Shown here in pieces: positions 12,555 to 63,467 of a stretch of 64,000 bases of DNA; positions within the stretch are counted from its first letter, which is position 1; every line of letters starts with the position of its first letter. A program made the translations under genes and the position numbers. The stretch spans positions 24,616,001 to 24,680,000 of the forward strand of contig NW_024704743.1 of assembly GCF_018977255.1 (NCBI RefSeq), written 5' to 3'. The notes beneath the pieces are model-generated. The model had not been told where the DNA came from, searched no databases, and was given only the letters and a program-made list of their open reading frames with translations. This DNA comes from Callorhinchus milii. Taxonomy: Eukaryota.

Positions 12555-12590
12555 GGAGAACAAGGAAATCCTGGATATGTTGGTGCTGAG
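12555..12590 (+). CDS. col6a4: collagen VI helix exon, 36 nt (GEQGNPGYVGAE)
   Basis: tttcag|GGA...GAG|gtactg. Confidence 0.92.
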
Positions 12591-12696
12591 GTACTGGTAA
12601 TATTTGTATAAAGATTTTTGTGTTTTCTCTTTTGTTGCCTTCATTGAGGATTGGAAGAACATTGTTTGATCTGGAATTGTTTTTCATTGGATTTAG

Positions 12697-12758
12697 GGAG
12701 CGGATGGAAAACCTGGAATTACTGGGATCGAGGATCGAAAGGAATCAGGGGTCGAAGG
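12697..12758 (+). CDS. col6a4: collagen VI helix exon, 62 nt as given, with a 1-nt frameshift; restored reading GADGKPGITGDRGSKGIRGRR
   Basis: tttag|GGA GCG GAT GGA AAA CCT GGA ATT ACT GG- GAT CGA GGA TCG AAA GGA ATC AGG GGT CGA AGG|gtagga; the Gly register shifts at the GGG run (12724-12726). Confidence 0.88.
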
Positions 12759-14134
12759 GTAGGATTTTTATTTATATTGCTTTATATTGTAAATATAGAG
12801 GGGCAGAAATGGAAAAGCTGACACAAAATCGGCACTGTAAAATGCTGCTGACTCTGTTATATTTACATGTGTGCCATGCGCAGGAAATGCCCCTGACATC
12901 ATTTCCTTCACAGGAAGTTTCATCGATGTAAATCTGTGTCCTTCTCATGCCATCGATGTAAATTTGTGAAGGAAGTGCACTTCTTGTAGGAACAACATGC
13001 GGGAAGTGACGTCCACAGCGACTTGATGACCTGAATTGTGGCCATGTTTTAGTGCAGGAAGCTGATTAGAAATCACCAGTAGTTGGGGGGCAGGGGGCAT
13101 TATAATAGGGTGCACCTATATAGTCACCATTTCCTTGTAACACCATTGTGCCACTTTTGTAGTATTATATGTTCTGCACATATTTTTGCTCTCTTACTAA
13201 ACTCTTTCAATCCAGCAACATTGGTAACATTCTGCAGATATAATGATAGTTCCAACTCTGCAAAGTGTCTACGGACTTTCACCAACACAAAATTTGGGTG
13301 ATTTTCTTTGTTGGTTGTCAGCAGAGGCAGGTCAGGCTCTGTGGGTAAATGTATAATATGGAAGCGGCATTATAATTATAATTTTAAAACTATGCAGCGT
13401 TTACCCTAATTTCTTCCATTGTGTGAAATCACTATGAGGTCCTTCGCAGTGAAAGTCAAGTTTCTTGTCAGTTTCTTTAATTTGTTGGGATTTGACCCAG
13501 ATCTGTATGCAGCTGGTGATAGTGTATTTATTGGCACAACTTAATTGTATATGCAACTGTTTGTAATGTAAAAACAAATTGAGAAATGCAATATTTTCCC
13601 AGCAATTTGACATATAAACATTTATCTGAGAGAAATAGCTTTTGAGTTTCCCTATACTTGTCATTTTTGGGAATCCATACAGAGGGCACTATAGTTCCAT
13701 TAAGATTGAATTCAGTATCTTTGTTTAATCCCACTCATCCCACAGTATCGCATTGAAGCATCAGTAAACAATTTGACATGACTCATTTTCGTAAATGTTG
13801 TGTGGTCTATAAAAAAAGGGTGAAATTTGCTAATCCATTTGTATATATCACATTTTTGGAAAGAGCTGATTACATAAATTAATATGTCTAAACAACTTCC
13901 TTCTGTGCTCTGAATTTCTGTTTATGTCAGTGCTTTGTGAACTTTTCAAGGTTCATGAATTCAGGCCAACTTCTTTATATTGTGCTCTTTTTTCACTGCA
14001 CATCTCAAACTATACAGTGGATCTCTAGAACATCAAGGTGGCTGGATATCACAAACTGTCACCTGCCACCACGCTGAACACAGATATCTGTTAATAGGTT
14101 ATGAGGAAACTCTGAGGCTTGGGAATACAAGGCG

Positions 14135-15310: not shown

Positions 15311-15373
15311 GGTAATTCTGGTGATGCCGGTGACCTTGGTGATCCTGGCTCTCTTGGAGGTCCTGGACGAGCG
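15311..15373 (+). CDS. col6a4: collagen VI helix exon, 63 nt (GNSGDAGDLGDPGSLGGPGRA)
   Basis: tttcag|GGT...GCG|gtaaga. Confidence 0.95.
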
Positions 15374-19621: not shown

Positions 19622-20115
19622 CAGGAAGAGGATGTCCTGCATATCCCACCGAGCTGGTGTTTGCTCTAGACGTGTCTGCAGATGTCACACAAGCCGTGTT
19701 TCTAAGAATGAAGAGAGTAGTTTTGACTCTTCTGCAGGACATTAACATCGCTGAAAGCAATTGTCCAACTGGTGCCCGCGTGTCTGTTGTTACATCCAAC
19801 ACCACAGTACAGACTTCTATTAGATTTTCAGACTTTAAGAAAAAGAAACTGCTTCTGGACAAAATAGAACAACTAGAACACGAACGATCTACCGGCAGTC
19901 GGAAGATTGACACTGTGATGATGTTTGTGGCAAGAAACACTTTTAAGCGTGTTCGTAATGGTGTACTTGTGAGGAAAATAGCAGTGTTTATCACTAATGG
20001 TGATTCCCCAGACACCACAGCGATCTCCACAGCTGCCATGATATTACAAGCTTCCAATATTATTCCAGTTGTTATTTCTTTCAGTGCAGTCCCAGAAGTA
20101 CTGAGTGCTTTTCTG
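19622..20115 (+). CDS. col6a4: VWA domain C1 exon, 494 nt
   Basis: ORF 19600..20148 (GRGCPAYPTELVFALDVS...VLSAFL); acceptor tcagcag (NAGNAG, start 19622 or 19625); donor CTG|gtaagt. Confidence 0.95.
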
Positions 20116-20204
20116 GTAAGTGAAACGATTTCCCCTCATTTGTTATAGTCCAGAAACAACTAGTAATGCAGCCAAAAAATCTCCAAAGAATTGACCTATT
20201 GTGC

Positions 20205-20812
20205 CATATGTTGGCTCATGCTTAAGAGTATCCAAACCAAGCTGAGAATTCCATATATCGCACCTACACATGGAAATTCCAGTGATAGATCCCTGGAGTG
20301 ATGCTTCCTGCTTACCTATTGTGGGAAATATTAAGCGCAGGATGGCAAAAGCCAAGGCTTGGGGACCCCAGAGTGTGTGTTGGGGTACTGCTGGAGGTTA
20401 ACCAGCTAAACCCGTATAGCTTGCCATTGATATTGCTGGCTAGCGAGCTTTCCTGTTGCTTGTCCAGCTAGGACCACTCTACCCATGAGGGCTTTGACTT
20501 GCAGGGTTATCAGGAGCTGAGTGGGATGACTTCCTGTCCCCAGGTCCTGCTGATGAGCCAGGCTGGCTGTGCTGTCATCAGCAGTGCCCTGGAATACTGC
20601 GGACCCTCCTGGCTCAGGAACTGGACTACCAAGACTGGCATCGTGCGCTTAATACTTTCCACAATTAGGTAAGCAGGAAGCATTCCTCCAGGGAGAGAGT
20701 CTGTATTTTATTCCAGCAATCTATCACTGGAATTTCCACGAGCTTGATTCCGACATTCCATTGCCAAGCAAGTCACCTTGGAGCCAGTCCAGCTCCAAGG
20801 ACTCTTACTTAA
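20205..20812 (-). repeat. family X copy with an internal inverted duplication
   Basis: revcomp matches 56180-56740; 20639-20737 is an inverted copy of 20272-20344. Confidence 0.75.
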
Positions 20813-20940
20813 CCCACCCTCCCCCCAGCAATCCCCGGAGAATAGTCACTGGTCACCTAACTCTTTATCCAACTCCAATCCAATTTATGCAAAAATTATG
20901 TTTCTAAATTTGCATTTTTCTTCCCATTCATTTTATCAAG

Positions 20941-21040
20941 GCTCAAGGTGGGGAGGAATCTGCAGTGTTTGTCCTACCCAGGCAGATGCAATCCTCCAGA
21001 GAAATGCTGCAAAATATCCGGTTATGCAGACTCTGCTATG
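20941..21040 (+). CDS. col6a4: C1-C2 linker exon, 100 nt (AQGGEESAVFVLPRQMQSSREMLQNIRLCRLCY-D)
   Basis: tatcaag|GCT...TAT G|gtatga; ends in the CxxCYD motif; phase 0/1. Confidence 0.9.
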
Positions 21041-21263
21041 GTATGATTGAAACGTACCAAATATTTATTTCCCGTGCAGTTTTTTAAAAAGGTTTATTTC
21101 TAAACTTTAACACTTATGTATTGCATAAAACCAATAGTGATATCAAGAACGTGTGCATGAAATCTTAACCCAACTGGTAAAGGCAGTAACCCAAGCAAGC
21201 AATATTTTTTTAAAACTAAAAGGAATGTGATTTTAACATCAGAAATGTAATCTTCTTTCACAG

Positions 21264-21935
21264 ATGAGTGTAACCCAGATGCCTCGTGTTCATCAGCCCC
21301 TCGATCGCTTACTGTACCATTAAGCCTGGACATGGCTTTTGTTGTTGATGACTTAGAAAAACTGAATGCTGCAGAATCGAGGACAGTTCAGCATTTCCTG
21401 AGCTCAATGTTTGACACGTTTCTAAGTACCTCAGAGTCAAAGGACTCTATGCCTCATCCCAGGGTGGCTCTGGTACAACACACACCAGGTTACGCACCAA
21501 AATTTGGGGATGATCCGTTTAACCTGGAGTTTGGGATTCTGGATTATCCCACAAAATCCATAAAGAAGAGACACGTCCAAGACGCATTGTTTAAGGTGGA
21601 CGGCTCCTCTAGCATTGCCAATACCATTGAGTGGAGCTTGAACAACTTTTTCTTAAATGCTCCAGATCAGAAACAGTACAAGGTTATTTTTACAATCTTT
21701 TCAGGGGAAACAAATATTTTGGACAAGAAAAAGTTAATGCAAGTTTCACGGGAAGCCAAATGTAAAGGGTTTGTAATGTTTGCATTAGCCCTTGGGAGGG
21801 GAACTAATAGCACGATCCTGAAGAATTTTGCTAGTTTTCCTTTTGAGCAACATTTACTTCGCCTGGACAGAGCACTGGAGGCTGAACTGGGATATGCACA
21901 GAAGTTTGCACTGGCTTTCCTGAATAACCTGGCAA
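21264..21935 (+). CDS. col6a4: VWA domain C2 exon, 672 nt
   Basis: tcacag|AT GAG TGT AAC CCA...; ORF 21332..21991 (LDMAFVVD...RVALVQH...EAKCKG...AFLNNLA); donor GCA A|gtaagt. Confidence 0.95.
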
Positions 21936-24184: not shown

Positions 24185-24360
24185 ATGTGTGTGCACTGAA
24201 TGTGGATGAAGGTAATTGCAGGAATTACATTTTGAAATGGTTCTTTAATCAAGAATTAAAAAGATGCCAACAGTTTTGGTTTAGTGGTTGTAGAGGAAAT
24301 CGGAACCGATTTGACACCAAACAAGAGTGTGAAGATTTATGTCTGAAACGTGCCTGGTAA
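24185..24360 (+). CDS. col6a4: terminal exon: BPTI/Kunitz domain and stop codon
   Basis: tttcag|AT GTG TGT...; DVCALNVDEGNCRNYILKWFFNQELKRCQQFWFSGCRGNRNRFDTKQECEDLCLKRAW*; all six Kunitz cysteines present. Confidence 0.95.
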
Positions 24361-56740: not shown

Positions 56741-57004
56741 TAAGTTCAGCGAGACTGATCCCCAGTTTTGGAGATAACCCAGGAAGAATAATTAGGTAAA
56801 CTAGAGCTCTTCAGGTTCACAAAGAGATGTTTCTGGAGGGATTTTATGTATAATGCTTATTTTATCGCTTACATTTAATAAGCCAAATTGGTCAGTGATT
56901 CACCACCCATAATTGTGATACTGATATTTTTAATAGAGCTTGAGCCTGCTTTCGACACTACTTGGAAGAAGTGATTTTGTCACAGTTCAATTTGTACCCA
57001 AATC

Positions 57005-57072
57005 CCTGACTGTCCAGCGTCTTGGGACTTCCTCCCGACGTGAAAGGCACAGTACAAATGCAATTTGTTGTT
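57005..57072 (+). mobile_element. isolated L2 3' tail
   Basis: ccagcgtcttgggacttcctcccgacgtgaaaggc...tttgttgttg. Confidence 0.8.
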
Positions 57073-57075
57073 GGG

Positions 57076-59688
57076 GTCCTCCTCTACCGGCCCCCTAAAA
57101 CCTCTCCCACCTTCAACTCTGACATTTCAACACTCCTCACATCTCTTTGCCTCTGCTCTGATCGCCTCATCATCCTGGGCGACTTTAACCTACACTTCAC
57201 CCCCTCCTGCTCCATCTCCACAGACTTCTCTTCCCTGCTCTCCTCACTCAACCTCTCCTTACACATAAACTCCCCCACTCACAGTCACGGCCATCCACTC
57301 GATTTGGTGATCACCCGGGGCCTCAGTGTCTCGGATGTCACTATTACCGACAAGGCCATCTCTGACCACTACTTCATCTCCTTCACCACCTCCACCCCCC
57401 TGGCCTTCAACCCTCACCGACCCCTCTTCTCTCTCCCTCCTCCACAATACCTTCTCCTCCACACTCGATACTCTTGCCCCCATCACTTCCCGCACTGTCT
57501 CCTACTCCCGCTCCTCCCCCTGGTACACCACCCACCTCCGCTCACTGAAAAGCCAGGTGCGGGCTGCTGAACGCACCTGTGTCAAATCTGGCCTAACGGT
57601 CCACCGACAAATCTGGCTGGACCTCCTCAAAATTTACCGCTCCACTCTAGCCTCGGCCAAGTCGTCCTTCTACTCCAGGATAATCCTGGAGGCGAAGAAC
57701 AACCCCAGGCTACTGTTTTCCACCACAACCCGACTCCTCCGTCCCCCCGCCACCCCGCGCAGGTCATCTCCTCCAACCTTCACTGCGAGGAGATGCTGGA
57801 TTTCCTTGAATCCAAGATCAAGGGAATTCGCTCCGCGGTCACTTCCCCTCCAACATCCACCAACCCCCCACCCCCTCACTCCCACACTCCGACTGCTACC
57901 CATCCTCCCCTACTCACTTTTGTACCCGTTTCCCCACCCTCTGTCACCAAACTCATCCTATCCCTAAAACCAACCACCTGCTCCCTTGACCCCATCCCCA
58001 CTCCACTCCTTATCTCCCAGCTCCACTTTCTTGCCCCACATATCACCGACATCATCAACCTGTCCCTCTCCTCTGGCTCTGTCCCCATTCCCTTAAAAAC
58101 TGCCACCATCACGCCCACCCTGAAAAAACCCTCCCTTGATGCGTCGCAGCTATCAAGCTACCGGCCCATCTCCAACCTCCCCTTTCTCTCCAAGGTCCTG
58201 GAAAGAGTTGTCGCCTCCCAACTGCGCTCTTTCCTTTCCACCCATTCACTTTTCGAACCCCTTCAGTCAGGTTTCCGTGCTGCCCATAGCACAGAAACTG
58301 CCCTGGTCAAGGTCACCAATGATATCCTGACCATCTGTGACCAGGGCTCCCTCTGCCTCCTCGTCCTCCTCGACCTATCGGCAGCATTCGATACGGTCGA
58401 CCACGCTATCCTACTCCACCGCTTGTCCTCCCACCTCAACCTTCAAGGCACTGTCCTTGAATGGTTTAGGTCGTACCTTTCTCACCGTCTTCACTTTGTC
58501 TCGACGAATGGCTTCTCCTCCACCCCCCGTACTGTCTCATGTGGTGTCCCTCAGGGCTCTGTCCTCGGTCCCCTCCTCTTCACCCTCTATATGCTCCCCC
58601 TTGGTGACATCATCCGCAGACATGGGTTAACTTCCACATGTATGCGGATGACACCCAACTCTACCTTTCCTCCTCTACTCTCAACTCCACGACCACCGAT
58701 GTCCTGACAGCCTGTCCGACATCGAGTCCTGGACGAGAGACAACTTTCTTCAGCTCAACGTGCGAAAAACCGAGGCCCTCCTGATTGGCTCACGTCAGCG
58801 CCTCCGCACCTCAGGCGCCGACACCATCAGCATCCAAGGCTGCACTCTCCACCTCTCAAAGCCAGTCAGGAACCTCGGCGTTTTGTTCGACCCTGAGCTG
58901 TCCTTTCTCCCTCACATCCGCACCACAACTGGCACCGCCTTCCATCACCTCCGGAACATCGCCAGACTACGGCACTACCTCACCCCTCACGCTGCTGAAA
59001 CCCTGGTTCACGCCTTTGTCACCTCAAGGCTGGACTATGGGAACTCTCTCCTCGCCGGCCTTCCCGCCACCTCCCTCCACAAGCTGCAGGTCATTCAGAA
59101 CTCTGCAGCTCGTGTACTGTCCCGCACCAGGCTTCGGGACCACATCACTCCCACCCTCGCTCGCCTCCACTGGCTCCCCATCCCCCAGAGGATTGATTTC
59201 AAGATCCTCATCCTCACCTACAAGGCCATTCACGGCCTTGCTCCCTCCTACCTCTCCGACCTACTATCCCCCTACCTACCTGCCCGTACCCTCCGTTCCT
59301 CCGGCTCCGGTCTGCTCCACGTCGCCCGCCCCAATCGCCCTACCATCGGTGGTCGGGCCTTCAGCCTCTCAGCCCCCAGGCTCTGGAACTCCATCCCCCA
59401 TTGCCTTCGCCTTGCTTCCTCCCTCTCCTCCTTCAAGGCCGGTCTCAAAGCCTTTCTCTTTGACCGAGCCTTCAGCTCCCCTCTCGACTCTCTTTCCCCT
59501 TCTCGCTCCCTCCCTCCCCTCACCCTGACCATTTCCCCCTTCTTCGCTCCCTCCCTTCCCTCCCCTCACCCTGACCATTTCCCCCCTGCTCGGGTCATGA
59601 CCCAACTGTGCAGCGCCTTGGGACGTCATCCTGACGTGAAAGGCGCTTTATAAATGGAATCTTGTTGTTGTTGTTATTGTTGTTGTTG
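57076..59688 (+). mobile_element. least-decayed L2 LINE in the window (partial APE, RT, 3'UTR), with a few frameshifts
   Basis: ORFs 57022-57570 (LYRPP, LGDFN, LDLVI, SDH), 57793-58707 (RT) and 58760-59653; CpGs retained; stem-loop and (TTG)n. Confidence 0.95.
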
Positions 59689-61967
59689 TGAACTACGATG
59701 AGTTTAGTCCACTCAAGAGAGGTTCATCCAATGGTTGGTTTGGGATTTTGAACAGACAGTTTTTCAATATTATCAAATATTATCAATTTCATAAATAGCT
59801 GTTCTTTATTTTTAGCTTGTGGAGGAAAGAGTTGGGAAGCCCGGTGAGCAGTGAGTAACCATATTTATTTTTGTTTGAGGTCACCAAGAAAATTAAAGAA
59901 AACCTTTTGTATAAGAACTAAATTTGTACAGCTAAAGTGTACTTCAATTATGAAACATTAATTCTTACATCAAATGAGTAATTTATTGACTAATGAGGCA
60001 ATGATGTATAAAAGCAAAATGTAGGCTAAACAGAGAACGTGCTTAAAATGTGATTCAGTAACCATTAACAAGGACTTTTTTTTACATGATATTTCTGAGA
60101 ATAAATCAATTCCAACCAATTGTTAACATACATTAACTATTAACAAGGTTGTAAGAGATCAAAAATAATGAGACCATTATATTGTATATCAAGAAATGAC
60201 ATCTTACATTTTTAAAAAAAAACTGATCTTCAGCAGTGATGTATTTCTCATGTGGCACCACTTTGGTAAGATATTGCAGGCCTTCATATTGCCGTTGTTA
60301 TTGAATGCTGCTCTAAGAATATTGTACTGGGTTTACTTGACCTTGTTTTTTTTAAGACCTGTTTTATCATCTAGAAAATCTACTGATGCAGAGCAAGGTT
60401 TCATTCTGGAACTTCATTAAACAGCTAAGTTGGAGCAGCTTGAAACTGATTTTAGTGAGATCAGTGTCGCCCATTTATAGATAAACCAATTCCAACAAGA
60501 AAAAATAAGATCCTTAAAGTAAGTGTAAATTAAGTATTGCTTATGGCTCAATCTATGGAAAAAAGCTAGAATGCACTTAACACACCAAAACTGGATAGCA
60601 AACACATTCTACCACTTTTCTACTCTGATAGACATAGCCAGAAAAAATCCTTGTATAACTTGTATACCAACAAAATAAGATTTGATGAGGAGTTTGAATG
60701 CAGAGAGAGAAGGTGGAGAGATTTTGGAAAAGAGTTCCAGACCTCATGTGACAGAAAAATCAGCTACTCATGGTTAGATGGAATATGTGAGGAATGAATA
60801 GGCAGAAGATCAGTTAGAAGAGTGGAGAGTATTGAAAATTGGGCTGGAAAAGATTGTATAGGGTGGGGCAACATCAGGAAGGGACTTGAAGGCCAGGACA
60901 AGGATGTTCAAGTTGATCTTCTGGGACACTGGGAGCTGGTGGAGTTTGTTGGGGACGGAGGCAGAGAGCTCGCAGAGGCTGGTATGAGAGAGTACATGGG
61001 TTTCAGAGTTCTATAAACTTCCTTTATTGTTGCCAAGCTTCTGTAACGTCTTTTTGATGTGTTTATGGATCCAGTTCGTAGCAGATGTCCCAGTGGGTTA
61101 CACTTTTTAATAACGATAATGACCCGTCTTCAGTCTGAAACAAATAATATCAGATTTGGTAAATAAGTGAAACATGGGAAGATAGTCTTCATATTCAACA
61201 AACACAATGATAAAAAACTGATAATATCTGTAAAACCAAACTAGGGCTTGTCATTTCCAATTACAAAAGATTATTATTGAGCTCTGAGCAAACATATTTT
61301 GCTTAGTTTCATTTATGTATCACAGCCCAGACATTAACCAGATGCTAAACTGGTCCATCATAAAAAGTCCTTATCTGCTTTGATGCAGTACATAGGCATT
61401 ACATGGTATCTTTTAAATATGAGACTTCATATTCATGTTAGGTATTCGATCTGTTCCTGTTTCCCTTACAGTCACTTTACCAATACCATTTTAGAATTTT
61501 ATAGCTGTGATAATTCCCTTCATCAAAATTCAGAGCATTTGAAAACATTAATAGATGAGAGATTAATAAGGAACAAAGCAAATGTATTTGGATTTTAGTT
61601 TAACACAGGAATATTAACTTTCCACTCTACCAATGAGAAATGTCACCTGGGTCTAGATTTACTCTGCTTTCATGGCATCCAGAATTTGAAAAATTCTTTA
61701 GTGCAGTCTTAAATTTGAAGCCAGTTTTCTGTAAGTTCTTTGAAGAACTACAGACATCAGCTTCATAGTTAAGACCAAATTCAATAATTTGCCAAATTCT
61801 GCGTGCTCTGAAATACTATATAAATAAAGTTAATCTGGACACAAGTCACATTTGTCTCCCTCCTCCCCCATGTATTCTAACTTTATTTATAATATAAGAA
61901 AACAGAAGACTGTATTCAGTGCAGCAAGAAACTTCACTCAGGTGTGATTAACTTGAGTTAATCGATG

Positions 61968-62745: not shown

Positions 62746-63467
62746 GTTTGAACTCACATTGTGTAGATCTCAGCATTTCAGTATTGGCTGAAGGAACACT
62801 GACAAATTTAAAACCATTTGAATGAAATTGTGATGTGAGGAAGGGGGGGGAAACAGAATATACCTGTGGCTAGTCAACAACTGGCATATCTCCGGAAGAA
62901 GAATGTCCTATTGATGTGATATCAATGTGATATGTATGAATGTGATAATTGTCACATCAGGTACCATATTTTCACCCCTTTCTTTCATTGTTGATTTTCA
63001 GTCTTATGTTGAATAACCATTCTGAATTCCCCAGCCCCCACCCCACGCATAGAGACAGAGACGGACTGAGAGAGAGACTTCAACACGAAGGTTGTCAGCC
63101 TGCGGGGGGGGGGGGGGGGGGGGAGGGGGGGGAGATAGGGAGTGTGAGAGGGGCTGAAGGAGTCCTCTCCCTTGCAACAAAGAGCTCTCCTCTTTGCTGG
63201 CTTCATTTGCGAAAACTTGAAGAATGACAGCCAGAACTAGCCTGCTTGTTGATTATAATACTGTGATAATCTTTAATACAGCAAGTTTCATATTGGGAGA
63301 CCATCTCAAAGCATTTCACATAACTTACAGTAATGTGTAGTGAACGTAAAGCAGTTGAGCTGGAGCAGCAGATTCTGGCAGAGTACTATTCTCCAGAATT
63401 AGATAAGATACCTTTATTTTCTCTGGTATCATTTCCCATTAAATGGATTGGAATTAAATAGAATGGA

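Follow-up and report, generated by a model that had tools for sequence, protein, structure and literature searches.

A one-base shortfall in a helix exon of an alpha4-like collagen VI gene of the elephant shark is most likely an artefact

A stretch of 64,000 nucleotides of the Callorhinchus milii assembly GCF_018977255.1 (contig NW_024704743.1; hereafter the window) carries a collagen gene in which one triple-helix exon is a single base short, and the locus raises the question of whether a col6a4-type gene is being lost in the elephant shark, as in human, or whether the consensus has dropped a base from a gene that still functions. The 3' part of the gene extends from 1782 to 24360 on the forward strand in 20 exons and 768 codons, its 5' part precedes the window, and the gene corresponds to the RefSeq proteins XP_007887867.1 and XP_042187960.1. 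Once one unknown base is inserted at the break, the 20 exons give an open frame of 768 codons that ends in a single stop, and every intron in the window (19/19) is GT-AG, in keeping with an earlier sequence-only reading that had described the other exons, 19 in number, as open with intact splice sites. No second intact protein gene was recognised in the 64-kb window.

The exon concerned (12697-12758, forward strand) is bordered by an AG at 12695-12696 and a GT at 12759-12760; it measures 62 nt as assembled and 63 nt in the intact record considered below, where it encodes residues 286-306 of the 336-residue helix. Frame 1 opens with GADGKPGITG and keeps Gly-X-Y for its first ten codons, after which the pattern is lost, and the 3' half reads as collagen only in the frame shifted by one, which bears out the claim of a frameshifted helix exon. 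The remaining 11 helix exons in the window are all phase 0 with lengths divisible by 3; the upstream neighbour (12555-12590, forward strand, 36 nt) and the downstream neighbour (15311-15373, forward strand, 63 nt) are both phase 0. Comparison with relatives was based on 124 proteins of at least 600 residues, ten of which were dropped for poor helix coverage, and an ungapped 21-residue alignment of the exon was found in 110 of the 114 with an aligned helix (P0034 and P0131 of this gene among them; the four misses are P0064, P0120, P0123 and P0128). Because it is ungapped in so many relatives, the exon is not a product of chance.

The intact RefSeq protein XP_007887867.1 (P0034) is 2,299 residues long and holds eight PF00092 stretches, the helix and a Kunitz domain. 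On the forward strand of the window, the C1 VWA exon lies at 19622-20115 (PF00092, E=3e-22), the C2 VWA exon at 21264-21935 (PF00092, E=2e-9) and the last coding exon, with the Kunitz domain and the TAA stop, at 24185-24360 (PF00014, E=3e-20 at 24187-24357). A C-terminal Kunitz domain marks alpha4 against alpha5 and alpha6, a distinction also visible in the Pfam columns of the protein search results, and this gene carries the domain as a COL6A4-type chain does. The N-terminal VWA array together with C1 and C2 is that of a collagen VI long chain, and the triple helix of 336 residues (positions 1412-1747 of P0034) falls on the 335-336 residues that an excerpt of PMC10049728 gives for the long chains alpha3-alpha6. 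Two sites of splice variation were also seen: a NAGNAG acceptor at the C1 exon (19622/19625), both sites of which are used by RefSeq isoforms X1 and X2, and a pair of donors 9 nt apart at exon 23080 (23185/23194), where XP_042187960.1 (P0128) takes the further donor compared with P0034.

Spliced as written, the gene first meets a stop in the C1 exon, an out-of-frame TAG at 19667-19669, whichever NAGNAG acceptor is used, and Pfam matches place two VWA domains and the Kunitz domain in exons downstream of the 62-nt exon, as the sequence-only reading had proposed on both counts. Were the deletion real, this stop would precede five further junctions, and nonsense-mediated decay would be the most likely outcome. 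A real deletion could also be rescued by splicing, with the exon skipped or with an in-frame GT after 12750 used as donor. Both routes preserve the frame, and omission of the exon leaves it open through C1 and C2, so that the earlier description of skipping as frame-neutral holds. Skipping would shorten the helix by seven triplets, and the GT after 12750, which gives a 54-nt exon, is a poor donor that would add eight non-collagen residues. Such rescue presupposes a real deletion, it conflicts with an exon ungapped in 110/114 relatives, and none of P0034, P0131 and P0128, three of the four full-length database models, skips the exon; we regard it as very unlikely. Alternative acceptors were also considered and rejected: there are eight AG sites between 12640 and 12759, and paired with the normal donor none of them yields an exon length divisible by three.

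The base at fault was sought among 252 single-base insertions. Many of these bring back Gly-X-Y, and two give the peptide of XP_007887867.1; the two are the same event, an extra A at 12727 (forward strand), where the window has a single A and the intact peptide needs two for an Asn codon, the intact record having been compared as protein and its codon at this site inferred by parsimony. The sequence-only reading had instead added a G to the GGG at 12724-12726 and had invoked a homopolymer; the extra G is rejected since it gives Asp where the record has Asn, and the context, A2 beside G3, offers no long run. Asn occupies the break position in all nine shark proteins of a class of about 2,280 residues (P0015-P0023), and Lys occupies it in five ray proteins of that class. 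The possibility that the intact record had borrowed this exon from a close paralogue, XP_007887977.1, was rejected, as the paralogue's exon differs at many residues.

Protein searches and cluster look-ups yielded three full-length Callorhinchus milii RefSeq models of the gene. Two of them, XP_007887867.1 and XP_007887868.1 ('collagen alpha-6(VI) chain-like'; P0034 and P0131), have the complete exon, with Asn where the window breaks, contain no X, the letter with which RefSeq marks an inserted base, and carry no low-quality label; being isoforms of one annotation, they provide an intact independent sequence of the gene as one witness. XP_007887867.1 agrees with the window exons at 763/768 residues, the differences being the break itself and four substitutions (two R/K, one I/F and one T/A) at 21359, 21500, 21770 and 23148. 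At 21359 and 21500 it is the intact record that shares its residue (R) with the paralogue, and at 21770 it is the window, a mix that fits either conversion polymorphism or assembly mixing of paralogue reads.

The third model, XP_042187960.1, is labelled 'LOW QUALITY PROTEIN: collagen alpha-6(VI) chain' and resembles the window, agreeing with it at 4/4 variable residues and in the shifted frame after the break. It reads that frame for six residues and then rejoins; removal of two bases within 12747-12752 (forward strand) yields its peptide, so that, unlike the intact record, it has two bases dropped, an exon of 20 residues and a false helix interruption. Judged against the intact peptide, this frame patch is wrong. 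The gene is already annotated and its frameshift already flagged in the public record, and the expectation that annotation would probably miss the exon failed, since XP_042187960.1 includes it under the LOW QUALITY flag. The 90% cluster of P0034 has five members, none labelled as a cDNA record, and when fragments covering the exon, whether short proteins or cDNA products, were sought with residues 1660-1800 of P0034 (size range 30-1263 residues, E no higher than 1e-20), eight of 1005 candidates matched, none of them from a chimaera. Among 24 sequencing runs listed, four contig sets of whole-genome size contained 72-77% of the sampled words, and no RNA set appeared among the listed holders.

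Taken together, these comparisons argue for a consensus error at 12727 in an otherwise functional gene, to which we assign a probability of about 0.87. This reading is favoured because the conspecific record is intact, because the shortfall is isolated, one base in size and flagged by RefSeq, and because consensus frameshifts are far commoner than true frameshift alleles. In human, true frameshift alleles affect a few tenths of one percent of the genes in any one genome. According to excerpts of the Merfin preprint (bioRxiv 10.1101/2021.07.16.452324), long-read vertebrate assemblies carry frameshift errors in a few percent of their genes, a share that was below 3% in the Merfin-improved assemblies; the preprint adds that Gnomon gives the label 'low quality' to models after indel correction, and that an assembly is kept out of RefSeq once more than 1 in 10 of its genes require correction. 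The gene would then be an ordinary, functional collagen VI long chain of the elephant shark, alpha4-like, from which the consensus of the window lost one A at 12727; the DNA behind the window would have the second A as well, and in the animal a 63-nt exon of Gly-X-Y repeats, with Asn at the break, would be included constitutively. The chain would be expected to take the place of alpha3 in alpha1-alpha2-alphaX monomers, as the family does in the part of PMC6934817 drawn on here. The preference of the sequence-only reading for an assembly error in a functional gene fits the evidence.

Elsewhere in the window, the only two N letters (35170 and 44204) are followed at once by six T or seven A, and the chance per site of lying at the edge of a 6-7 base run is 0.0037 (n = 2); the consensus thus contains run lengths that were left unresolved, which also counts in favour of an error. 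A 29-base near-pure G run is present at 63104-63132. The longest L2-like LINE copy (56950-59700; RVT_1 E=1e-25) is about 80% identical to the next copies; its reading frame is broken in several places, and a short stretch is duplicated in tandem at 59496-59585. This copy had been cited as a parallel for the error, and it does have one G fewer at 58624 than three of the aligned copies, whose motif is a G4 run or equally long; however, alignment with three copies shows a further 4-nt deletion near 58710, and about 100 nt near 57390-57435 that are present in one other copy are missing. This is the only young-repeat control in the window, and as a decaying copy it is a weak one that we rejected for this purpose.

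Three considerations run counter to an error. The intact record is another haplotype, with four residue differences, and the window's own haplotype may differ from it at the break; A2 beside G3 is a short context without a long homopolymer; and the several long-chain paralogues of C. milii would make a tolerated null allele more plausible than in a single-copy gene, because the family is redundant. A real and recent one-base deletion, that is, a private or low-frequency null allele on the sequenced haplotype, would accord with two haplotypes that differ at 4/768 residues and with a gene left intact elsewhere, as a young lesion would leave it, and its loss could be buffered by paralogues. The few percent of genes hit by consensus frameshifts, set against the tenths of a percent that carry true frameshift alleles, weigh against it, and we consider it improbable. 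The further suggestion that such an allele is tolerated since a neighbouring paralogue with about 95% identical C1-C2, a likeness ascribed to gene conversion, can replace the chain is likewise a doubtful one.

Signs of decay were sought throughout the gene, and no second lesion was found in its 768 codons and 19 introns. P0034 has lost 1 of the 108 conserved Gly columns of the helix, at helix position 115, where six shark proteins of the ~2,280-residue class likewise lack Gly, and at least one such loss is seen in 52 of the 107 other complete helices; since Gly is retained as well as in relatives, relaxed selection on the helix was rejected. The gene's branch is not long: at 0.54 in the N1 + helix tree it matches the paralogue's. 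As no second lesion is present, a rough bound from target size, which uses assumed rates including indel rates, would place any inactivation below about 0.9-1.3% neutral divergence (about 2% without indels), which would exclude an old loss and be compatible with a young allele. An inactivation of col6a4 fixed throughout the elephant shark species, as a counterpart of the human loss, has in its favour the frameshift as written and nothing more. The conspecific record has the exon whole, so the lesion is not fixed in the species as that of a unitary pseudogene would be, nor is there the further decay of one, stops, splice sites, glycines and branch length all being ordinary; moreover, the human disruption was a chromosome inversion rather than a frameshift, in a different and not one-to-one gene, according to excerpts of PMC6934817 and PMC10049728. 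We find this account scarcely credible, and the independent loss entertained by the sequence-only reading is excluded at species level by the intact record of the gene.

The name col6a4 was examined with trees of 49 fetched proteins that were chosen for this purpose and whose alpha4, alpha5 and alpha6 tags derive from database labels. In a quick IQ-TREE analysis of N1 + helix (48/49 rows, one dropped for coverage; midpoint root, without an alpha3 outgroup), the gene falls on the alpha4 side of the split between alpha4 and alpha5/alpha6 with SH-aLRT 98, and in a C1-C2 FastTree it stands outside alpha5/alpha6, with a support of 27 at the deep fork. Both trees place it inside a clade of cartilaginous fishes only, within which the order of duplicates in the N1 + helix tree is an open fork. 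The name col6a4 would be no more than approximately right, and a one-to-one COL6A4 is not supported, as the clade holds several paralogues; judging from these sequences, 'col6a4-like co-orthologue' would be a fair name, with co-orthologue the most that can be claimed.

Over window positions 19622-21935, the C. milii paralogue P0126 (XP_007887977.1) is 95% identical to the gene in C1-C2 (396/418), and over the aligned N1 + helix it is 54% identical (217/399); in the C1-C2 tree the two group at 100, and shark proteins of different paralogue classes are intermingled there as well, a pattern that resembles repeated gene conversion of C-terminal domains between the collagen VI duplicates of cartilaginous fishes. 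In titles and abstract openings, we found no literature on such C-terminal gene conversion and nothing on this locus or on cartilaginous-fish collagen VI duplication. The minus strand at 61411-61550 holds the remains of a Kunitz exon, interrupted by stops and small deletions, that can still be aligned with the genuine one at 24185; it may once have been the final exon of P0126, which lacks a Kunitz domain, in a tail-to-tail arrangement with the gene.

The shortfall in the exon is, on present comparisons, most likely an artefact, and an error would be relevant to curation only: a gene-loss survey on the window sequence would score a false loss, and the patch in XP_042187960.1 mimics an extra helix interruption where XP_007887867.1 has the proper exon. 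If the deletion were real, it would amount to a single null allele in a family with redundant members, and its interest for the gain and loss of collagen VI long-chain genes would be modest; a real single A would represent an early stage of the type of loss completed in human COL6A4, still with no species-wide parallel to it.

Compared with known systems, the gene shares with vertebrate COL6A4 (zebrafish col6a4a/b and tetrapod alpha4; COL6A4P1/P2 in human) the long-chain architecture and the terminal Kunitz domain, and differs in belonging to a multi-paralogue clade of cartilaginous fishes. Excerpts of PMC6934817 and PMC10049728 describe independent duplication of collagen VI long-chain genes in many lineages. 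The shark and ray Kunitz chains of about 2,280 residues (e.g. P0015-P0023) have the same length and domain order, with 52-57% identity over N1 + helix, and those of sharks share the Asn at the break (9/9) and, in six, the non-Gly helix position 115; one-to-one orthology with the elephant shark gene is an open fork in the tree of cartilaginous-fish duplicates. In comparison with the indel errors that Gnomon corrects, the shortfall at 12727 is known here from the consensus and protein records, and it is likewise an isolated one-base shortfall in an intact gene, carrying the RefSeq flag of a 'low quality' model.
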